Positions 9,057 to 50,303 of a DNA stretch of 64,000 bases are shown here, piece by piece (positions within the stretch are counted from its first letter, which is position 1; every line of letters starts with the position of its first letter). A model generated the notes under the pieces. That model did no database searches. It saw nothing but the letters and a program-made list of their open reading frames with translations, and had not been told where the DNA came from. The translations under genes were made by a program, and so were the position numbers. The stretch lies in the IMG/VR virus record IMGVR_UViG_3300033144_006348; one strand, given 5' to 3'. The stretch is from a virus (Duplodnaviria > Heunggongvirae > Uroviricota > Caudoviricetes).

Positions 9057-9117
9057 AATTTTTATTCTTATTGGATATCAACGAAAGGAAATTGGATTAG
9101 TTTAAAGTTCCTTATTC

Positions 9118-9132
9118 TATATATATTAATAA
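9118..9132 (+). promoter_or_regulatory. Conserved 15-mer TATATATATTAATAA (copy 1 of 4), promoter/TATA-box-like
   Basis: Exact 15-mer recurs at 21734, 45567 and 49546, always intergenic. Position anchored on the stop of 9288..9932. Confidence 0.35.
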
Positions 9133-9174
9133 CAAATAGGAGCTTGTTCTTATTGTTTGGTAGGATTTAATCAG

Positions 9175-9210
9175 CGAAAAAAGCGGGGTACCACTCATCC
9201 GTAGTACCCC
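9175..9210 (-). terminator. Intrinsic terminator for minus-strand gene 9288..9932
   Basis: Hairpin GGGGTACCACTCATCCGTAGTACCCC. On the minus strand it is followed by TTTTTTCG. Confidence 0.5.
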
Positions 9211-9287
9211 ATAACATAGTCGATAATTTCATACTTTTAAGTGAATTGTAAATATTTAATTTTTGTTCTAAAAAAATATGGACATTG

Positions 9288-21791: not shown

Positions 21792-22034
21792 ATGATTACA
21801 TGGCTTTTATTTCTGGTTGTTTGTGTTTATCAAGCTCTTGATGTCTGGCAAAGCTGGTGGTTGTTTCATTTTGGAGCCGGAGAATTAAATCCTCTTGTGG
21901 CTTTAGGAATAGAAGGTGGAGGAATAATGTTCGTAGTTTATCTTAAAACATTATTTACATTGCTACTTTTACTAGGAATCATAATTCAAAAACGAAAAGA
22001 AAAGGAGAAAAAAAATGGAATGGGACAAGATTAA
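21792..22034 (+). CDS. Small membrane protein (two TM helices, holin-like topology), function unknown
   Basis: ATG 21792 after AAGGAGGTTAAA. Downstream of the TTTGTTCTATATATATTAATAA promoter-like motif. Confidence 0.35.
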   Translation: MITWLLFLVVCVYQALDVWQSWWLFHFGAGELNPLVALGIEGGGIMFVVYLKTLFTLLLLLGIIIQKRKEKEKKNGMGQD

Positions 22035-22365
22035 ACTTTCAATTTCAGAGTTTACAAATGCGTTTGTTATTCAGATATTATCTCAAGATATGAGTTATTC
22101 AAACCGAGTTACGAAAGAAGGCTTAGTGAATTTTGATGGATGGCGTATAGAATGTCAGAATAATCCTATGTTATATCCCTCAGAAAAAAAAATATTCCTT
22201 AGAGGTAGAAACCGGGGAGGACATTATAAATTGCTCATTTATGAAGGAGAACACAATCACGCTGTACTAGAAGAGGTCTTGAGAGCAATTAAACTATGGG
22301 CAAAAGCCTTAGACAAAAAAACCCTGTCAGAAAAAGGAGAAAAATGTTACGAAATATCTTTCTAA
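22015..22365 (+). CDS. Hypothetical protein (116 aa)
   Basis: ORF with RBS GGAGAAAAAAATG. Confidence 0.35.
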   Translation: MEWDKIKLSISEFTNAFVIQILSQDMSYSNRVTKEGLVNFDGWRIECQNNPMLYPSEKKIFLRGRNRGGHYKLLIYEGEHNHAVLEEVLRAIKLWAKALDKKTLSEKGEKCYEISF

Positions 22366-22534
22366 GGAGGTGAAATGAATATGCGATGAGACATAGACCT
22401 GAAATTCTAAAAAAATATTCCTTCAATCCATCACGTCAACCCAGCCGTCCTACCGTTTTCGATAAGCTGGATATAAAATCATATATAGATAACCTATTCT
22501 TACAACTATAAATCCCTATTAAGGAGGTAAAAAA

Positions 22535-23197
22535 ATGACAGAGGAAGTACAAGAATGCACAGTATATGCAGAAATTAACGGAACAAATTACGTTATAGAT
22601 AAATATGAAGGAATTTTGATTAACGCGGAAGATGAAACTATAACCTTTAAGATAGATGTGACTCCATACTGCCTCAAATGTAACGATCTTATGGAATTCT
22701 ATCATACAATTGACGAGAAATATGATCGGTATAGTTGTCCTAATCCTTGTAGAGAAGACAGATGGGTTCTAAAGGAGTTCACTCCGAGGACGATAGACGC
22801 TGAAGTAATTAATCCAGATTATGAATATATCGACCCTGTTGAAATGATCAATAGGTTAGAGGGTATGGGATCTTGTATTGCACACAGTACTTGGGACCCT
22901 TTTGATCTACGTCTATTTCTGGAATTTATTACAGCATCAGAATTACATTATTTCTATTTTGTCAAGGTTTTGGTGATGTATAAAAATGATTCAGATGTCT
23001 TTGTTTCCGGATCATGTATCCATAACATAGCAATGAATAGGTATCAGCCTTATAAAGACAGATCGGATTATCAAGGAAATCACCATATAGACCAAAAATA
23101 TGTCTTTAACTCAAAACATTATCCCAGACCCCCTCGCCCTATTATGCCGCCACATCAAGTTGATAATTATATTGAGTCTCTATTTAGTAGTATGTAG
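22535..23197 (+). CDS. Paralog A of a duplicated 220-230 aa Cys-containing protein family
   Basis: Shares NGTNYVIDKYEG..CLKCNDLMEFYHTIDEKYDRYSCPNPCREDRWVLKEFTPR.. with 23964..24656. RBS AAGGAGGTAAAAAAATG. Confidence 0.5.
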   Translation: MTEEVQECTVYAEINGTNYVIDKYEGILINAEDETITFKIDVTPYCLKCNDLMEFYHTIDEKYDRYSCPNPCREDRWVLKEFTPRTIDAEVINPDYEYIDPVEMINRLEGMGSCIAHSTWDPFDLRLFLEFITASELHYFYFVKVLVMYKNDSDVFVSGSCIHNIAMNRYQPYKDRSDYQGNHHIDQKYVFNSKHYPRPPRPIMPPHQVDNYIESLFSSM

Positions 23198-39900: not shown

Positions 39901-40661
39901 TTTGCTAAGTCAAAAACATAATCGTAAATATGCAGACCCTTAGACGAAGCTATCATTTCTCCATCTTCAACTCCAATTTCTGCTGCAACATACTCTTTTA
40001 ATAATTGAATTGCTGCTAAATTTGCTGGTAATCCATTCCACATATCCCATGATCTAAAATATGGATAAAAATGTAATTTGCCGTCCTGTATTCGTGTGTC
40101 TATATGTCTTAAACATGGAGGATCTTTAAGTAACATATCTGTTGGATGTGCCACCTGTAAAACCATTTGATTATTTCTAAACCCTTTATTTTTATAAGTC
40201 CATATCAGTAGATCTATTTGATTAAGACAAGTACACTTAAACTCTTTATCATAAAAAATTATCTCTAACTCAGATAATGTATCTAGTTCATTAATATAAA
40301 TATCAACCTTACCAATATAATGCAACGCTGCTGGAGGAATAGGATATCTTGTTAATCTCTGACCATAAGTGTAACTCTCCCCTTCTTTTAATTCTCCAGT
40401 CATCAAATAAGGAAGATACCCATCTAAATAATCATCTGCAACTGGATTTGGAATCCCATACTGTGGTTCAATTTGTGGTAGTAAAGGTCTTTCGCCAGGA
40501 TGTGTAATATGAATATCAACATAATCAAATTCCAACCTTTTTTGACCAGCATATGACCCTCTATCAATTGTAAAAACGCTTCCCTCAGTTATCATTCTAA
40601 ATAATGTTTGAAACCAAGCATCTCCTAAATGTGTAGCTTTTATATCTTGTTTATTTAACAC
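39858..40661 (-). CDS. Thymidylate synthase (ThyA) family enzyme; may be a dNMP hydroxymethylase rather than a true TS
   Basis: DPPCLRHIDTRIQDGKLHFYPYFRSWDMWNGLPANLAAIQLL parallels ThyA LPPCH..DGKLS.QLYQRS.D.FLGLPFNIASYALL. Confidence 0.55.
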   Translation of the reverse strand: MLNKQDIKATHLGDAWFQTLFRMITEGSVFTIDRGSYAGQKRLEFDYVDIHITHPGERPLLPQIEPQYGIPNPVADDYLDGYLPYLMTGELKEGESYTYGQRLTRYPIPPAALHYIGKVDIYINELDTLSELEIIFYDKEFKCTCLNQIDLLIWTYKNKGFRNNQMVLQVAHPTDMLLKDPPCLRHIDTRIQDGKLHFYPYFRSWDMWNGLPANLAAIQLLKEYVAAEIGVEDGEMIASSKGLHIYDYVFDLAKCLRMQENIQLKGE

Positions 40662-41010
40662 CGTGAAGAATACCTCCTTGTGGGATTACTACAGCAGTTC
40701 CTTCTTGGGACATTAATTCTACAGAAGTCAATTGACTTATTAAATTTTTATCAGTAAGTTTCCCATATACGTCTTCGTATCTGAGAACTTTAAGAATCCT
40801 GTTTTTAATAACTATAGTCTGGCCTCCATGTTGAAGATGAAAAATTAAAACATCTCCAACTTTAATTGCAGAGACATCTTCTCCAACTGTTACAACTCTT
40901 CCATAACCTTGAGGATCTATAATTGCATCAGTAGGAGCAATTATTCCTCCACTAGATTTTTGTCTCTTTAATTCTTCAACGATAATCTTGTCTTTTACTG
41001 CTTCCAGCAT
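40651..41010 (-). CDS. GroES/gp31-like co-chaperonin
   Basis: Size about 110-120 aa. N-terminal MLEAVKDKIIVEELKRQKSSGGIIAPT fits the GroES pattern (roof hairpin, mobile loop GGI). Confidence 0.5.
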   Translation of the reverse strand: MLEAVKDKIIVEELKRQKSSGGIIAPTDAIIDPQGYGRVVTVGEDVSAIKVGDVLIFHLQHGGQTIVIKNRILKVLRYEDVYGKLTDKNLISQLTSVELMSQEGTAVVIPQGGILHGVK

Positions 41011-41296
41011 CTTGTTTTCTCCTTTTCATTTGATATTTTCTTGCTCTATCTTGCATCTCTTTCTTTTTTTCTTCCTCTTTTTTGAGCATTCTGATTGCTC
41101 TAGCTCTTTTCTTCCTCTTTTTTATACTAGGTTTTTCATGAAACATAGAATCTCGAAACTCTTTTGCGATTCCGCTTTTAGAATACTTTTTCCTGAACCT
41201 CTTGATAAGTTCGTGAGTAGATTCTCCCTTTTTCTGGACAACACATATTCCAAAATTCTCTTCTGGCTGATAATGTTCAGGTCTTTCTAAGTGCAT
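40976..41296 (-). CDS. rpsU: Ribosomal protein bS21-like protein with N- and C-terminal extensions
   Basis: ..ICVVQKKGES..LIKRFRKKYSKSGIAKEFRDSMFHEKPSIKKRKKRARAIR aligns with bacterial bS21 (..VIKV.[41 protein letters not shown]). Confidence 0.5.
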   Translation of the reverse strand: MHLERPEHYQPEENFGICVVQKKGESTHELIKRFRKKYSKSGIAKEFRDSMFHEKPSIKKRKKRARAIRMLKKEEEKKKEMQDRARKYQMKRRKQDAGSSKRQDYR

Positions 41297-41583
41297 TTTT
41301 AATCATCTCCTTCCTTAACCTCTTCACGAAAGTTATAATTAGGTGTCCTAAAAGAGGCACACCCAGACCAACGATTACTGGACTCAAACTACCAAGAACC
41401 CATGCAAGATCTGTGTTCATATTTAACATCCTTTTAACGAGGAAATAACAATTTTGTCCTCGCCCTTCTTTTTAAATAGTAAAAACCATATAATCTTCCA
41501 AACATTTTGATCAGGCCTATTACTTGCAGACCCTCCGTCTTTAGATTCTAGTTGAATACTATATTTTCTCATTTCTTTCCTCC

Positions 41584-42270
41584 TTATACAAAACCATAAA
41601 TTATATGACTTCGTGACGAAAAATTGAATTTGTACTTCTCTGCAACATCAAAAACTTCTCCTGAATTTTTGATTAGCGTACTTCTATTTGTACCCTCTGG
41701 CATTAACCAAACTCTTCTACTTGCGAATCTATCTTTTTTCATTAATTGAGATAATATTTCTAAATAATCAATCACAGTAGATCGAGTCTCATAAACAATC
41801 TTAATATAAACATCATCAAAATCTAATAATTCTTTAGTTTTTTCAACCGCTTCTCTGAGATCTTCAGGTGTAAATATTTTTGGTGAATATATAAACTTTA
41901 CATTTTTAGCCTTAGATGTTGATAAAACTAGTCGTGGTAATTTATATCCATTTGACTCAACATTTACAATTGGATACTCTAATTCATTTAATAATGCAAG
42001 AGTTTCAGCATAATGTTTCGGTACCGTAGGTTCTCCACCTGTTATTAACAAACCGCAATTTGTATCATCTATCTGTTTTTGAATGTCTGATAAAAGGTGG
42101 GGTGCCTCTGCTGAGATACGCATTTTTACAGATGTATCACACCAAGAGCATTTGAGGTTACACGTTTTGAACCTGAGGATAAGCATTGCTCGGCCCATAT
42201 CTGGACCTTCCCCTTGAAAACTCCTAAAATTTTCGATTAGTCTTACCGATTCCATAAATTCCCCTTTCAT
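41584..42270 (-). CDS. queE: Radical-SAM 7-carboxy-7-deazaguanine synthase (QueE)-like enzyme
   Basis: IENFRSFQGEGPDMGRAMLILRFKTCNLKCSWCDT fits the QueE N-terminus (F.T.QGEG..G.P..F.R..GC.L.C.WCDT). A GGEP motif is also present. Confidence 0.55.
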   Translation of the reverse strand: MKGEFMESVRLIENFRSFQGEGPDMGRAMLILRFKTCNLKCSWCDTSVKMRISAEAPHLLSDIQKQIDDTNCGLLITGGEPTVPKHYAETLALLNELEYPIVNVESNGYKLPRLVLSTSKAKNVKFIYSPKIFTPEDLREAVEKTKELLDFDDVYIKIVYETRSTVIDYLEILSQLMKKDRFASRRVWLMPEGTNRSTLIKNSGEVFDVAEKYKFNFSSRSHIIYGFV

Positions 42271-42286: not shown

Positions 42287-45200
42287 TTAAAAAGTCAATA
42301 CTTCCATGTTTTTCTGTACATCTAATAACGGTTTTAACATCAATTCATATCTATCAACAAATACAAATTTTAGAGTTGCTTTAGTATCTCTTATGAAATA
42401 ATCTGGTAATTTTTCCTCTTCGTCGGGGATTGCTATTACTTGTAACTTTTTCCCTTCTGAAATAAACTTATGATACTTGTTCCTAACATCTTCTGGAGCT
42501 TTCATAATATCAACGCCTGAAACCCAATACATATATGCTCTAGCACCAGGTCTATGACTCATATACATTATTTCATTCCATGCTTCCATAGCCTTAACTC
42601 CCTGTGGAATGAGTTTATAATCTTTCAATGGTCTTCCATATGACACAGGCCTTGCTATGGTTTTACTTCCTTCCTTAATTAATCTGATAAATTCCCCTTC
42701 TTTACTTTGGACAAATTTTAATAGGCCTGATATTAATATCTTTTCAGATTTTAAAATTAACTCTGAAAGTTCAGTTAGAAACTCTTTTGATTTACTTGGG
42801 TAGTCTGATCTTTTAATCTCTACTCCCATATAACTAATTTCGTCCACATCTTCTCCTTCTATATTTATAACACGAATTGCATATCTCTTTTTAGCTAAAA
42901 ATAAGCCTCTTGAAATAACCAACTCATTTTTTAACATCAATCTGTTAAAGTCCATATCTGTATTATGTTTCTTTACAACTTCAATAATTTTATCATTGTT
43001 TAAAAACTCTTTTATTTTAGAACACCAAGAAAGAATATTTTCAACTGTCTTATCTTCTGGAAAATTTTCAAAACAACAAAAAATTGAGTCAGTATCACCG
43101 GTTACAATGTATTCATTACTTCTATCTGGCATTGCCTTTTCAAACATTTCTTGTTTAGTTAGAGGATTTGGTTTTACATATGGTAGTCCTGTACTTAAAT
43201 GCCTCATAAAAGCATCAGCCTCAATGATAGAAGTTTTTAGAGCTTCTTGCCCTGATAGTGTTACTGCAGCAGCTAGAGATGTATCAAAAAATCTGAATGC
43301 TTTATTTGCAACAACTCCATATAAAGTATTAGCTAGCACTTTATAAACTAATTGCCTTGTATAAAAGAATGCTCTTCCATCTTGATCTTTCTTGTCGATT
43401 GCCTCAAACATCTTCTTTTTATATTCTTTTCTGGACTTCATTAAATTATCAACAATTTCTCCAAAAACAGAAAACTCTTTCTTCTGAGGTTTGAAAAAAC
43501 AACCATTAATAGTAAATATTAATTCATCATCTTTTATTTTTTTAAACAGTTGATCCTTAGAAACTTTAACTAATTTATTTTCATACAATGGGTCAATATA
43601 CACTTCAATTTTTTCTGGTAGATTGTCTGGATAATATGTCAATTCATATCCTAAATGAGGATCTTTTGTTTTCATTACATAACTATTTACCCCTATATTG
43701 TATGTAATCATTAAACTTGGATATAGTGAAGCAAAATCAAAGTCTGTGATATGATCATAGATTCCAGGAATTGGTTCAAATACAAATGCTCCTGGATAAT
43801 CTTTCTTTTTAACATGAGGATCAGCATTTTTTGATGCAAGTCCCTTTTTATTCAAGTATGAAACCATCAATGTATCAATTTGTCCGAACGGTGAAGATCC
43901 TGTATCAAAACTTGCATTACAAATAATCCTTAACTCATTCAACAAATTTATATGAGATAATTTATTTTCAAGACTCTCCAAAATTTCAGCATCTCTAATA
44001 TTATACTCTATCGTTGTATTTAACATCTTCCAGTACATTTCGTTAAATTTAAGAGGAAGTTGTATCTTGGTTATTTCTAATTCATGTTGTGCAATAAAAC
44101 CAAGCTTATAGTTCTCCATCTTTGTGAATGTAAAAAATTTATATAAAAACTCTTGATCCAAAATAACACAACCTGGAATATGGCAAATATATTTAGAACC
44201 ATCAATATACACTTCTCCAAAATTTGAAAGTGAATTAGGCGGCATCCCTATTTTATTCATACGGTTATAAATATAGTCCATATCAAAGTTAATGAAGTTC
44301 CACCCACTCATAAAATCTGGATCATCTTTTTTAAAGTCTTTAATAAAAGTATTTAATAACTGTCTTTCATTACTGAATATTTTAATTTCAACTCCTTCTT
44401 GATCTTTAATTGGTTCAGTTTTATTATCAATAACGTAAGTAGTTTTCTTTCCATTTAAAATTGTAGTAATCATATTGATCGGAAACAATGATTTCTTTGG
44501 ACTGGGGAATATAGTTTCTTTTCCAGTATCAACCTCAATATCACAAAACATCACATTATTTTGTGATTTCTGTGGTTCTCCCTCATTAAAGAAATAATAA
44601 TCCATTGTATGTTTCGCTGTAATTTTATAGTCGCCTTCATATGTAATCTTTGGATCTAAACTAAATCTGTCTTTGTATGGAATTGAAATCTGATTCAGGT
44701 CATCATATGGAACTAATTTCCTTGCTTCAACTCCCTCTGGAACTTGATAACATACAAACTCATCACTTTCTTGGTGATAACATTTAAAATTATGTTTGTC
44801 TCTAAAAATATATAAAACTTTACTCTTTTTATTTAAATACTGAACATCTATTAATCTATACTCATCCGTATAAAACTTATCTGGAATCCTGTATCTATGA
44901 ACGCCTTTTCCTAGCGTTTTCCCTTTTACAGTTGCTTTTATATCAATCTTCTTTCCACTAATTAATTCAGCAACCTTTGCTATATCAGCTTCAAATTTTG
45001 GCATCCATAAATTTTTATTTCTATTTACAAACGATGGATGAACTGTCAAGAATAATTTATAATCCTCCCACTCAAAAATCTGTCCGTGGATATTAGTTAT
45101 TCCACTCTTGGCAATTCCAAAAGCAGACATTGGGCTTCCGCCCATCAAAAGAACTAAATCTGGATTGCATACTCGAATCATATTCATACAATTCTCTTTA

Positions 45201-45550
45201 CATCTTTCAATAACATCATCAGTTGGATTTCCTGTAGTTCCATCTGGATTTAATGTCTGACATAAAACAACATTTGTTAAAAGATATTTAATTTTATTCA
45301 ACCCAAACATTTCAAAATATTGACGAAATACTTTTCCCGCAGTTCCTATCAATGGTTGTCCTTTCTTGATTTCATTCTTTCCAGGATTTTCAGCTACAAC
45401 CACAAGAGAAACTTTAGATAAATCATCTTCTGAATTAGTTTCTATCATACAAGAAGGTGTATCTAAAAGAGGACACACTGAACAGTTTGCAAATGATTTT
45501 TTTATTGATTCCAAATATATACCCCTTTCTTTTTGATTGTTTGTTCCCAT
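42287..45550 (-). CDS. Family-B DNA polymerase with 3'-5' exonuclease and an N-terminal family-4 UDG-like domain
   Basis: N-terminus: C..C.L, VVAENPGKNE..GQPLIGTAGKVF and HPSFV, as in UDG family 4. Exo I DIEVDTG. Motif B KVLANTLYGV. Motif C VTGDTDSIF. Confidence 0.75.
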   Translation of the reverse strand: MGTNNQKERGIYLESIKKSFANCSVCPLLDTPSCMIETNSEDDLSKVSLVVVAENPGKNEIKKGQPLIGTAGKVFRQYFEMFGLNKIKYLLTNVVLCQTLNPDGTTGNPTDDVIERCKENCMNMIRVCNPDLVLLMGGSPMSAFGIAKSGITNIHGQIFEWEDYKLFLTVHPSFVNRNKNLWMPKFEADIAKVAELISGKKIDIKATVKGKTLGKGVHRYRIPDKFYTDEYRLIDVQYLNKKSKVLYIFRDKHNFKCYHQESDEFVCYQVPEGVEARKLVPYDDLNQISIPYKDRFSLDPKITYEGDYKITAKHTMDYYFFNEGEPQKSQNNVMFCDIEVDTGKETIFPSPKKSLFPINMITTILNGKKTTYVIDNKTEPIKDQEGVEIKIFSNERQLLNTFIKDFKKDDPDFMSGWNFINFDMDYIYNRMNKIGMPPNSLSNFGEVYIDGSKYICHIPGCVILDQEFLYKFFTFTKMENYKLGFIAQHELEITKIQLPLKFNEMYWKMLNTTIEYNIRDAEILESLENKLSHINLLNELRIICNASFDTGSSPFGQIDTLMVSYLNKKGLASKNADPHVKKKDYPGAFVFEPIPGIYDHITDFDFASLYPSLMITYNIGVNSYVMKTKDPHLGYELTYYPDNLPEKIEVYIDPLYENKLVKVSKDQLFKKIKDDELIFTINGCFFKPQKKEFSVFGEIVDNLMKSRKEYKKKMFEAIDKKDQDGRAFFYTRQLVYKVLANTLYGVVANKAFRFFDTSLAAAVTLSGQEALKTSIIEADAFMRHLSTGLPYVKPNPLTKQEMFEKAMPDRSNEYIVTGDTDSIFCCFENFPEDKTVENILSWCSKIKEFLNNDKIIEVVKKHNTDMDFNRLMLKNELVISRGLFLAKKRYAIRVINIEGEDVDEISYMGVEIKRSDYPSKSKEFLTELSELILKSEKILISGLLKFVQSKEGEFIRLIKEGSKTIARPVSYGRPLKDYKLIPQGVKAMEAWNEIMYMSHRPGARAYMYWVSGVDIMKAPEDVRNKYHKFISEGKKLQVIAIPDEEEKLPDYFIRDTKATLKFVFVDRYELMLKPLLDVQKNMEVLTF

Positions 45551-45581
45551 TTAAAAAAATAATTACTATATATATTAATAA
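45543..45581 (+). promoter_or_regulatory. GTTCCCATTTAAAAA box + 18-nt spacer + TATATATATTAATAA; candidate promoter driving rightward into the GC-rich non-coding segment
   Basis: Near-identical composite to 49522-49560, with the same spacer length. Overlaps the polB start codon on the other strand. Confidence 0.4.
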
Positions 45582-45590
45582 CTGTCATAG

Positions 45591-45982
45591 TCAATTCTTG
45601 TGATTGGCAATTATAGAAACTGCCATGGTTTCTGGGCTTTTAGTTTCACAAGAGATATCTAAGGCCGAATTCGATGCTAGGGATGTACAGCATTGGATTG
45701 CCCGGTCGGGTCTAACTTTTACTCCGGTACATGGCTTAGTTTTCCCAAATTCCATATTTTCCCAAATTCTACTAGTGGCTTTAAGGAGGGCCAAAGACAA
45801 TGTAAAATAATTTTATAGAGGCTGCAAGGAAGTGCGCCAATAGAGCGTTGCGTATTGATCCTCGGTATACCCGAATGCCTGATAGGAGGGGGCAAAAAAG
45901 TCATGAGATTATAAAGCAAAATAATCATTTTAAATAATACAGCCAGAGATACCTTTAGTGGGGAAGCGCTTGGTAGCGTGCC
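45591..45982 (+). ncRNA. Candidate structured non-coding RNA (~390 nt), class unknown
   Basis: GC content far above genome background. Only short mutually overlapping ORFs on both strands. Bracketed by the promoter-like composite motif and a strong terminator. Confidence 0.3.
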
Positions 45983-46033
45983 GAGGGAGAGAAGAGCCGG
46001 TGACGACGGCCATGACTCTCTCCCTCATTTTTT
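45983..46033 (+). terminator. Intrinsic terminator closing the 45.6-46.0 kb non-coding segment
   Basis: Hairpin GAGGGAGAGA-agagccggtgacgacggccatgac-TCTCTCCCTC followed by ATTTTTTC. Confidence 0.55.
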
Positions 46034-46167
46034 CAATGCATGTCTGATCAACGACTGTGTTGGAACTGGTGAGGCATAGAGATATGATTGCCTGATCACT
46101 CTATGCCTCAGCAGTCTCAACAGATTTCATTTTTATAAAATCAACTTTATATGAAAGGAGATACACC

Positions 46168-46806
46168 ATGTCAACAGAGTTAATACCTTTAGCTGAAGCG
46201 GAGAAATTTTTGGGTATGGGTAACCTCCCATACGATAAAGATAGAGTTCATAAAAATTGTGACATTTTAGTAGAATGCGCTACAGAAAATGAGGAAGCTG
46301 AAAAAATTCCTCTTTATTATGACGCGAGATTTATTTGCTTGAATGTTATAGGTGAAGCTCAACTTGTCAAAACGGGACAGTTTCATCTTGAATCTCCGCT
46401 AGCAGATGCCTGTGATCGGTGTAAAGGTGTTGGACGAATGCTAAAGCGGGAAATGAAGGAAATAGAAGTTGGATGTCACGACTGCGGCGGCGAGGGTGGG
46501 ACCAAAGAGGAATGCCCTGCATGTAATGGAACCAGGCGACATGTTAGAAAATTTCCAGGGTTGACAATTTCTGTTAACTGCACTCAATGTGATAATAATG
46601 GAGCGAAGATCGCAAAATGCGAAGTTTGCCGAGGATCTGCTAAGGTTAAAAAATCAATTAGCACAGGCAAATTCGCTTCTTCAAGCCAATGTAAATCATG
46701 TAAAGGAACCGGAAAGAAACCTCCAAAGAAACCAAAACGAATTTTTCATGACGATTTTCAGAGTCAATTGGCCGGTTTTCTTAAAAATGCAGCTAACGTA
46801 AAGTAG
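46168..46806 (+). CDS. DnaJ central-domain-like zinc-finger protein (four CxxCxGxG-type repeats)
   Basis: CDRCKGVGR, CHDCGGEGG, CPACNGTRR, CTQCDNNG, CEVCRGSAK, CKSCKGTGK. Lone plus-strand gene after the ncRNA-like segment. Confidence 0.45.
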   Translation: MSTELIPLAEAEKFLGMGNLPYDKDRVHKNCDILVECATENEEAEKIPLYYDARFICLNVIGEAQLVKTGQFHLESPLADACDRCKGVGRMLKREMKEIEVGCHDCGGEGGTKEECPACNGTRRHVRKFPGLTISVNCTQCDNNGAKIAKCEVCRGSAKVKKSISTGKFASSSQCKSCKGTGKKPPKKPKRIFHDDFQSQLAGFLKNAANVK

Positions 46807-49486: not shown

Positions 49487-49560
49487 TGTTCCCATTCATT
49501 AAAAAAATTACCCATTTATATGTTCCCATTTAAAAATTGATAATCTATATATATTAATAA
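49487..49560 (+). promoter_or_regulatory. Two GTTCCCATT boxes + TATATATATTAATAA; candidate promoter for the 49.57-50.2 kb non-coding RNA / tRNA array
   Basis: Composite motif shared with 45543-45581. Confidence 0.4.
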
Positions 49561-49566
49561 CTAATG

Positions 49567-50143
49567 ATAGAGTGTTTGTTAGTTTTATAATTACTTCGGA
49601 GATGGGATAGCTTTGGGTTGTGATCCCCAAAGTGAACTCCGTGAATTCATAGCCAGGATTATGAGTGGCCAGAGCTTAATCTCTCTAGGTACCACTGTAA
49701 CTGGCCCCTATATTTAATATAGAACAAATTGAAAATTTGTGGGGTTTTGCTCGTTTGTGGAAATAACGAGACCTCCGGATTAGGATGCGTTATATGCCGG
49801 CTTTTAAAAATATGACGGGTTGCTAGTATGGAGGGATGTATAGAAGGAGTACAGGATACAGTCCTGGTATTTCGCGGATACAAAAACTGAGACGGTATGC
49901 TATAGTCAGTTGTGACGTTTGGGCCTCATCGCCGACGGACCACAGACCGAGAAAGACTCCGGTTCGTCCTCCGCCTCCCTGCCGCCGGATACGAAAGCGG
50001 CTATGTGGGAGTGCGTTATCGGCTTCGGCTGGGATTTTTCCCCCGCCAGAATGAAACCGCAATTGGAATAGAATCCGTCCCCCACTTTATTTTAGCAGGT
50101 GACTAAGACTAATTCTCACTGATAGAGTTTTAATTTTCCTGCG
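49567..50143 (+). ncRNA. Candidate structured non-coding RNA (~580 nt), class unknown
   Basis: Locally ~55-60% GC around 49.9-50.06 kb versus ~33% background. Four short mutually overlapping ORFs on both strands. Promoter-like motif upstream, terminator downstream. Confidence 0.3.
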
Positions 50144-50206
50144 AATTGATAGGGATGCTAAGGATGCTGTCAGTGCTAGAGAGCATCCTTCCTATCAATT
50201 TTTTTA
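50144..50206 (+). terminator. Intrinsic terminator closing the 49.57-50.14 kb non-coding segment, upstream of tRNA-Pro
   Basis: Long bulged hairpin AATTGATAGG[gatgct]AAGGATGC...GCATCCTTCCTATCAATT followed by TTTTTTAG. Confidence 0.55.
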
Positions 50207-50303
50207 GTAACTTTAATTTGAGAATGAAACTTATTTTTACAGTTTGTTTCTAGAATCTATCTATTAAAAAGTTTAGAACATATGAAAAATGTAGTTAGTA
50301 TCT

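Follow-up and report, generated by a model that had tools for sequence, protein, structure and literature searches.

A probable expanded 5′ leader with a kink-turn-type hairpin and start-stop mini-ORFs between polB and a zinc-finger gene in environmental phages

This report deals with the segment between positions 45,591 and 46,033 of a 64-kb window (the whole stretch of DNA that was analysed) of the IMG/VR record IMGVR_UViG_3300033144_006348, an AT-rich uncultivated phage with a guanine plus cytosine (GC) content of ~30%. The segment lies in a gap of ~590 nucleotides (nt) between two divergent genes, namely polB on the minus strand and a gene for a DnaJ-type zinc-finger protein (46168..46806) on the plus strand. 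On balance, we read it as probably a long, structured, cis-acting 5′ leader or attenuator of the zinc-finger gene, which would be transcribed rightward from a promoter-like composite beside polB and would control that gene by read-through. It is built around two recurrent modules: a hairpin with the consensus of a kink-turn (k-turn), here called module B, and start-stop mini open reading frames (mini-ORFs), here called module A. A preliminary description of the window, made from its letters alone, had seen in this segment a rightward unit leading from a promoter-like motif to a terminator. That unit, with a conserved structure and a terminator-like end, was recovered, but not as a free-standing non-coding RNA (ncRNA) gene.

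A kink-turn-type hairpin with covarying pairs

The argument for structure is built on comparative data and not on thermodynamics. Loci were fetched with PolB as the anchor, 9 of them from IMG/VR and 66 from metagenomes, together with 4 further contigs (loci are numbered with the prefix L), and the covariance-model searches covered 678 kb of sequence on both strands.

Module B occupies 45983..46026 on the plus strand. Its outer helix (P1, the non-canonical or NC helix of the k-turn) pairs 45983-45992 (GAGGGAGAGA) with 46017-46026 (TCTCTCCCTC) and opens into an asymmetric internal loop. On the 5′ side, this loop has A45993 at position 3n, followed by the non-bulged G45994-A45995; on the 3′ side, it has the bulge C46011 A46012 U46013, then G46014-A46015 and C46016 at position 3b. 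Above it, the canonical (C) helix joins 45996-45999 to 46007-46010 and is closed by the loop 46000-46006. Across loci the core is constant, 5′ ..N-GA-GC(C/U)G .. C(G/U)GC-CAU-GA-C.. 3′, and the sequence of the outer stem varies.

A covariance model (R1) built from seven short-class members of the hairpin gave exactly one match per locus, always in the leader, and none elsewhere; the window, too, holds one match. The model also recovered six hairpins that had been left out of its training, with E = 3e-4 to 3e-7. Pairs 4-13 of P1 are paired in all 15 distinct sequences, with double changes in 12 of 13 pairs, and the covariation score of P1 (0.541) was reached by none of 500 shuffles, which scored 0.226 +/- 0.023. 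When the P1 partner was slid by 1-3 columns, the score was only 0.07-0.16. Since the R1 alignment is model-fitted, RNAalifold was run independently on a plain MAFFT alignment, and it arrived at this fold as well, de novo and with compensation in 12 of 15 pairs. Searches by blastn and nhmmer with the window segment as the query matched the hairpin region only, in L052 and L070. Comparative covariation and an Rfam/Infernal search had been proposed as checks on the segment: the former shows conserved RNA structure in the hairpin, and the latter gave no family match.

The standard k-turn consensus has a three-nt bulge followed by tandem G.A/A.G pairs (PMC5061560). The invariant asymmetric loop of module B matches it, with the tandem pairs 1b G, 1n A, 2b A, and 2n G in 15 of 15 sequences and the bulge CAU in 14 (CAC in the remaining one), and would thus be a standard k-turn by consensus. 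Equally constant in the C helix are -1b C, -1n G, and the next pair, C-G (15/15 each), followed in the long class by U.U as the third pair. P1 measures 10-13 base pairs (bp). Position 3b is C in 14 of 15, and G never occurs at 3n, where A, C, or U is found. This agrees with the rule that a k-turn can fold with no more than metal ions when either 3b is C or 3n is G, but not both (PMC4382518).

The long-class hairpins (L011, L017, L029, L065, and L076) show, above the k-turn, a second conserved internal loop, AGUGAGAU .. AAUACCRA. They also have the U.U mismatch of the C helix and an apical stem that varies, and the second loop does not match a simple second k-turn. The AUG within the CAUGA of the k-turn was also considered as the start of an upstream open reading frame (uORF) and rejected: it is absent in L065 and L033, has no Shine–Dalgarno (SD) sequence, and lies inside a helix.

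Start-stop mini-ORFs upstream of the hairpin

Module A is found 22-175 nt before the hairpin. In it, a 3-5-bp G/C stem closes a 9-11-nt loop containing GGAGG(UG); an A-rich spacer then leads to an AUG, or in two members to a GUG, with 0-3 codons before the stop. Two copies are present in the window, both on the plus strand. In copy 1 (45777..45805), the hairpin GGC-UUUAAGGAGG-GCC, with the SD in its loop, precedes ATG TAA at 45800-45805; in copy 2 (45877..45914), the hairpin GCC-UGAUAGGAGGG-GGC precedes ATG AGA TTA TAA at 45903-45914. Written as minigenes, they read AAGGAGG-N10-ATG TAA and AGGAGGGGG-N10-ATG AGA TTA TAA, so that both starts fall within the 5-13 nt after the SD by which start-stop uORFs are recognized. 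Duplicated copies are also found in L017 and L027.

All 16 hairpin-bearing leaders contain module A, a pattern that overall is met only about once per 9.4 kb on each strand. The content of the mini-ORF varies (ATGTAA, ATGTGA, ATGTAG, ATG-AAC-TGA, ATG-GAT-TGA, GTG-TTA-TAA, and others), and the clamping stems change compensatorily (CGG/CCG, CGGC/GCCG, AGG/CCU, and GGGU/GCCC, next to GGC/GCC and GCC/GGC in the window). Holding the SD in a clamped loop is specific to these modules: of 27 GGAGG mini-ORFs, 14 do so, and almost all of these are leader modules, compared with 2 of 74 GGAGG sites before ORFs of at least 60 codons. We read module A as a putative site for loading a ribosome that cannot travel. 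Another mini-ORF with a perfect SD, AGGAGGTGAA ATG AAT ATG CGA TGA, is found at 22365-22389 of the window, between the genes 22015..22365 and 22535..23197; such mini-ORFs may be used elsewhere in the phage.

The closest relative shows how these parts change. With the zinc-finger protein as the query, one close homologue turned up at 73% identity, on contigs L087/L090, whose leader of ~700 nt is homologous to that of the window along its whole length. Identity to L087 is 100% in the promoter composite, 95% in the k-turn hairpin, ~80% in the modules and the 5′ domain, and 62-66% in the spacers. The only two differences in the k-turn hairpin form one compensatory pair, G-C to C-G. For mini-ORF 1, the window has ATG TAA and L087 has ATG ATA ATT TAA, with the start moved and the stop shared; for mini-ORF 2, L087 has ATA at the window's ATG, but a new ATG placed 4 nt farther upstream yields ATG CCA TAA. 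This turnover of start codons indicates selection for an SD, a start, and an immediate stop, and not for a peptide.

These observations bear on the idea that the segment is a functionless, drifting spacer or insertion debris in the 5′ untranslated region (UTR), with the hairpin as the remnant of a terminator. The leader is indeed highly variable in length and content (70 to 700 nt), carries lineage-specific insertions, and has an unremarkable folding z-score. Drift, however, would leave neither the compensatory covariation of P1 around an invariant core, nor mini-ORFs that are kept through turnover of their starts, nor modules that occur together in 16 of 16 leaders, nor a hairpin far better conserved than the spacers. 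The idea is strongly disfavoured, and we give it very little credence.

Coding potential

The GC content over 45600-46100 is 43-45%, compared with ~30% in the flanking genes, and the ORFs overlapping the segment are all short, at most 69 amino acids (aa). In both respects the segment is what the preliminary description had said: GC-rich, with short overlapping ORFs only, and non-coding. The candidates for a conserved small protein, such as 45625..45810 on the plus strand and 45719..45928 on the minus strand, are not preceded by an SD, and their frames are disrupted in L087 by 1-nt indels and by insertions of 95 and 33 nt. The window and L087 leaders differ by 13 indels in all, mostly non-triplet (1, 1, 95, 33, 5, 2, 4, 10, 3, 1, 2, 5, and 11 nt), and by substitutions that favour no codon position (12/11/11 and 19/15/13). 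A tblastx comparison of the segment with all fetched loci (~80) found nothing. Owing to the non-triplet indels, the even substitutions, and the null tblastx result, a small protein is rejected.

Coding for a small protein was weighed together with action at the level of DNA, as an origin or a cruciform beside polB. Frames of up to 69 aa speak for the former, and a replicative polymerase as a neighbour, which would suit an origin, for the latter. Apart from the evidence against translation just given, P1 has G-U pairs and no A-C pairs, which means that one RNA strand, the plus strand, is selected and not duplex DNA. We regard either form of this explanation as highly improbable.

Position in the leader of the zinc-finger gene

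The promoter-like composite lies at 45541..45581 on the plus strand and consists of TTGTTCCCATTTAAAAA (45541-45557), a 9-nt spacer, and TATATATATTAATAA (45567-45581). The preliminary description had placed it at 45543-45581 with an 18-nt spacer; the composite is there, but with the earlier start and the shorter spacer. The 15-mer core TATATATATTAATAA has four copies in the window, all on the plus strand. From 49 distinct contexts, the consensus in the clade is TGTT(C/A)C(C/T)nATTTnAAAAA, ~10 nt, CTATATATAT(T/A)AAT(T/A)A, and nTGAA. The composite is identical to that of L087 at 41 of 41 positions, and in short-leader relatives nothing else upstream of the gene is conserved. The composite presumably acts as the promoter for both the leader and the zinc-finger gene, and it may also serve the divergent polB.

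Every locus with enough upstream sequence (~50) shows polB, a divergent CxxCxGxG gene, and the promoter motif between them. At about two-thirds of the loci, the zinc-finger gene starts 50-100 nt after the motif and there is no long leader; ~16 loci have leaders of 218-445 nt, and those of L087/L090 reach ~700 nt. Since the short leaders consist of the promoter, 50-100 nt, and the gene, the ~590 nt of the window are extra material inside a 5′ leader. The long leaders would form a family within a sub-clade of these ~250-kb phages, with that of the window as an expanded member. A separate ncRNA unit, as first proposed, is therefore not what the relatives show, as the motif precedes the zinc-finger gene in every one of them. 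The preliminary description had also allowed that the segment might merely be the 5′ UTR of 46168..46806. Its position is that of a leader, but "merely" does not do justice to two selected, recurrent modules.

The zinc-finger gene itself (46168..46806, plus strand) encodes 212 aa with six CxxCxGxG repeats and has the SD AAAGGAG at 46154-46160. Its product matches Pfam PF00684 (E = 6e-11) and, in the PDB, the DnaJ zinc-finger domains 1exk and 2ctt. A weak match to phrog_6060, "Q-like antitermination protein," covers the zinc finger only and is given no weight. Just upstream, the basal 5′ UTR (46113..46167, plus strand) comprises a U-rich tract, CAAC, and the SD; it is 83% identical to L087 and has the same layout in short-leader relatives. 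A GC-rich stretch beside polB in L001-L004 had looked like a homologous ncRNA and was rejected, as it is the zinc-finger gene itself.

An unlikely contender is an independent stable RNA of ~450 nt, part of a ribonucleoprotein (RNP), which would end at the k-turn terminator and leave the gene to leak-through or to a weak promoter of its own. The promoter, fully conserved with L087, and the terminator geometry would suit such an RNA. So would the conserved parts, a k-turn and ribosome-binding sites (RBSs), which are as expected for an RNP, and the same motif precedes apparently non-coding units at 9.1 kb and 49.5 kb. In the window, moreover, a 78-nt insertion parts the hairpin from the gene, with a promoter-like TTGGAA-17-TATGAT at 46060-46088. 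In the long-leader relatives, however, the hairpin is only 31-72 nt from the ATG of the gene, which leaves no room for another promoter, so that the gene would there be expressed by read-through. Module B is never found away from the zinc-finger gene, and about two-thirds of the clade has the promoter and the gene but not this module, as is more readily expected of an accessory regulator in cis than of an essential RNA acting in trans.

The terminator-like end and proposed control by read-through

Directly after the module B hairpin, an A and a U6 tract occupy 46027..46034 on the plus strand (T6 at 46028-46033). With a computed stability of -18.9 kcal/mol for the hairpin, the window thus has the geometry of an intrinsic terminator, and the hairpin with a T tract at 45983-46033 that had been marked earlier is borne out as a terminator-like element. 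A simple terminator scanner missed module B owing to its internal loop.

If the cis-acting leader works by read-through, most transcripts would end at 46028-46034, yielding a leader RNA of ~450 nt, and the zinc-finger gene would be expressed only by read-through. The k-turn could then serve as a dock for a protein, either a host member of the L7Ae family (e.g., YbxF/YlxQ) or one from the phage, by which termination or the stability of the RNA is adjusted. Ribosomes halted at the mini-ORFs might protect the long untranslated leader or report translational capacity. A more specific proposal is that the k-turn within the terminator recruits its binding protein and that, together with the ribosome-parking sites, read-through into the zinc-finger gene reports the translational or ribosomal state; this is tentative, and we hold it to be doubtful. 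An attenuator with a leader peptide (of the trp/his/pheS type) was rejected: the ORFs have 1-4 codons whose identity is not conserved, they end 22-175 nt before the hairpin, and no antiterminator pairing was seen in the folds.

Termination need not be regulated at all. The leader could act on translation or on messenger RNA (mRNA) stability, with the RBSs of the mini-ORFs as 5′ stabilizers or roadblocks and the k-turn hairpin as a protein-bound roadblock or processing signal whose contact with the U-tract is incidental. The SD modules are far from the gene, 45-175 nt upstream of the hairpin, as 5′ stabilizers would be. The U-rich tract, TTTATTTTTTCAA(C), also occurs in short leaders without the hairpin, and the hairpin stops 10-20 nt short of the U-tract in about half of the family. 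On the other hand, the hairpin stands 0-2 nt before U5-U7 in the window, L087, L010, L052, and L077-79, where termination by bacterial RNA polymerase would be hard to avoid. In other members, the intervening 10-20 nt often pair with upstream sequence, which lengthens the helix toward the U-tract. This explanation appears distinctly improbable to us. The U-tract is a basal UTR feature, and the hairpin abuts it in the window-like members just listed.

Critically speaking, several points weigh against a cis-acting leader controlled by read-through. The U-tract without a hairpin and the gap in about half of the family cast doubt on termination, which may be incidental or true only for the window-like subgroup. 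Folds of the leader show no alternative antiterminator pairing with the P1 strands, and the folding energy of the 451-nt segment is unexceptional against shuffles (z = -1.2 on the plus strand and -1.4 on the minus strand). Most of the window leader (the 5′ domain, the spacers, and the 78-nt insertion) is common to one relative or to none, and the geometry of the ORFs does not settle the direction of the promoter motif. The k-turn is assigned from sequence consensus alone. Finally, a search for L7Ae/YbxF homologues in the 64-kb window (of ~250 kb) and in the fetched loci, which was a weak test, found none.

Other features of the gap and of the window

The 5′ structured domain (45584..45745, plus strand) is common only to the window and its closest relative, L087/L090, and is 78% identical to L087, with its substitutions distributed 12/11/11 among the codon positions. 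It contains hairpins at 45590-45608 and a long-range helix, GCCAUG/CAUGGC. In a two-sequence RNAalifold consensus of 39 pairs, 10 pairs are changed and all of them are still paired (9 one-sided, 1 double, 0 broken). With two sequences, the support for this predicted structure is modest. Further on, the tandem direct repeat TTTTCCCAAATTC (45740-45752 and 45757-45769) replaces ~128 nt of the L087 leader.

The window-specific 78-nt insertion (46035..46112, plus strand) is absent from L087/L090, where both flanks align, and has no other copy in the window. It carries a second hairpin at 46070-46110, which the preliminary description had placed at 46071-46109, with a perfect 14-bp stem (-23.7 kcal/mol) and no adjoining U-tract. 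This hairpin was considered as a k-turn or k-loop and rejected, as it has no tandem G.A arrangement and belongs to a window-specific insertion.

The preliminary description had also drawn a parallel with a second non-coding segment at 49.57-50.2 kb, adding that the two were not obviously similar. The parallel stands for the promoter composite (88.6% identity over 44 nt) and for the terminal hairpin with a T-tract, but not for a separate ncRNA unit, and no similarity was found beyond the promoter. Since the 49.57-50.2 kb segment has neither module, no Rfam match, and no homologue in the fetched loci, the parallel organization is a shared promoter class and not a shared RNA. The GC content there (49520-50210) rises to 56%, and a box, ATGTTCCCATT, is duplicated at 49487 and 49519. 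The segment ends in a hairpin (50148-50196) followed by T7, upstream of a transfer RNA (tRNA) array with tRNA-Pro. A third copy of the motif, at 9118 on the plus strand, lies between two minus-strand genes (9100-9215 of the window) and is followed by ~90 nt with a hairpin GGGGTAC..GTACCCC (~9185-9210, -14 kcal/mol). This 9.1-kb unit may be a small antisense or intergenic RNA.

On the other side of the composite, polB (42287..45550, minus strand) encodes a family-B DNA polymerase with an N-terminal uracil-DNA-glycosylase domain. Its start is probably not the ATG at 45550 but the in-frame TTG at 45514-45512, which has an SD, GGGG, at 45525-45522, since relatives align only from residues 7-15. 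With the TTG start, the CCCAT of the promoter composite becomes intergenic. In L012, L066, and L070, an extra minus-strand ORF of ~100 aa, rich in Cys, lies between polB and the promoter motif.

The phage clade and the reach of the searches

The polB operons of the window and its relatives also encode a radical-SAM protein, the ribosomal protein bS21, GroES, and thymidylate synthase. In the window, the operon lies at 40651-42270 on the minus strand and includes the radical-SAM protein, bS21 (40976-41296), and GroES (40651-41010); in L076-L079, thymidylate synthase is added to it. Such genes indicate a bacterial host. Together with the DnaJ-type zinc-finger gene, bS21 and GroES suggest a phage-encoded toolkit for translation and chaperone functions. 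Two close PolB relatives, P0091 and P0114, are on contigs deposited as metagenome-assembled genomes of Thermoplasmata and Thorarchaeota, one of them 255 kb long; as bS21 and GroES are present, these are probably mis-binned phage contigs. Another relative, P0070, has a PolB of 1529 aa with an extra match to Pfam PF14890, which suggests an insertion, presumably intein-like, in the polymerase gene of some members of the clade.

PolB relatives are found by the hundreds in metagenomes, with 60-73% identity and on contigs of up to ~255 kb. Among GenBank phages, the identity of PolB to T4-like gp43 proteins does not exceed 28%, and blastn with the segment gave zero matches there. Scans of the window and 5 loci with Rfam 15 at gathering thresholds returned tRNAs only, and permissive E-value scans of the segment and the loci of 5 relatives returned only sub-threshold chance matches. 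Exact-pattern scans of IMG/VR for either module gave 0 matches; in GTDB genomes, the module patterns gave 7 matches, all within GC-rich coding sequence and none with the hairpin. A PolB scan of genome contigs and an IMG/VR scan with the zinc-finger protein found nothing. Within the public collections scanned, the modules were thus not found outside the clade, and in the literature searched we found neither their combination nor the RNA family nor its phage clade; Rfam has no model for it.

Significance

The hairpin and its leader represent a modular RNA family with strong covariation and no Rfam match, from a large and essentially unstudied clade of ~250-kb environmental phages. The pairing of a consensus k-turn inside a terminator-type hairpin with regenerated mini-ORFs, whose SD sits in a clamped loop, is unusual. 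If the k-turn is operated by a protein, the leader would represent, in bacteria or phages, a natural equivalent of the synthetic L7Ae/k-turn switches. It would also offer a tractable case for the function of start-stop sites; the modules are short, mutable, and open to assay in vitro. More generally, a GC-rich non-coding island that looks like a separate ncRNA gene in an AT-rich phage genome can be the expanded leader of the gene beside it.

Comparison with known systems

K-turns in leaders are well known. The bacterial L7Ae homologues YbxF and YlxQ bind k-turns, and k-turns ("GA motifs") recur in bacterial antitermination leaders (PMC4316175). The k-turns of T-box stem I and of P2 in the S-box/SAM-I riboswitch resemble module B in that a standard k-turn stands in a leader with a terminator-like hairpin and a U-tract. 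The phage leader differs in having no specifier loop, T-box sequence, SAM-binding core, or Rfam match, and too few conserved nt for a ligand pocket. Its k-turn, moreover, lies inside the terminator-like hairpin and not in an upstream aptamer helix.

A hairpin k-turn in a 5′ leader can also work as a protein-operated switch, as in translational regulation by L7Ae (PMC5539422). The 5′-UTR k-turns of archaea and of synthetic L7Ae switches are likewise simple hairpin k-turns in a 5′ leader, and the bulge nt L3 is a conserved U in module B, as in box C/D and U4 k-turns. In contrast to these switches, the phage has a bacterial host, the gene that follows does not encode L7Ae, and the k-turn lies 31-140 nt upstream of the SD with no overlap.

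As for module A, leader minigenes influence downstream genes or translation (PMC3262186, PMC8708949, PMC2490762), and two-codon ones are among them (PMC3262186, PMC8708949). Those of lambda bar, the LEE1 leader of enterohaemorrhagic Escherichia coli, and axe-txe share with it a strong SD, an AUG, 0-2 codons, and a stop in a leader. In the phage leader, by contrast, the SD sits in a conserved clamped loop, and the module is often duplicated, always accompanies a k-turn hairpin, and lies 100-360 nt from the main start codon. This distance excludes direct occlusion of, or coupling to, the RBS of the gene. The bar minigenes of phage lambda are start-stop minigenes.

Lambda also offers a model for the overall layout. 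At PR′-6S RNA-tR′, a strong promoter is followed by a few hundred nt of non-coding RNA up to an intrinsic terminator; expression downstream depends on read-through, which takes place with Q. A promoter, a non-coding leader, a terminator-type end, and downstream expression by read-through are the features shared with the phage leader as we read it. Here, however, no qut-like element was identified, a single zinc-finger gene takes the place of a late operon, and the sole link to Q is the weak PHROG match limited to the zinc finger.

The STAB-SD of Bacillus thuringiensis cryIIIA and the ermC leader are ribosome-binding 5′ stabilizers of mRNA, with an SD far upstream of the coding start. The phage leader is alike in its perfect SDs far upstream in a long leader. 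STAB-SD, however, needs no start codon, whereas in module A the AUG and the stop are conserved and are regenerated when lost. The pieces (leader k-turns, intrinsic terminators, and minigenes) are thus all known individually; by the searches made, their combination and the family are new, and as an RNA family it is well supported.

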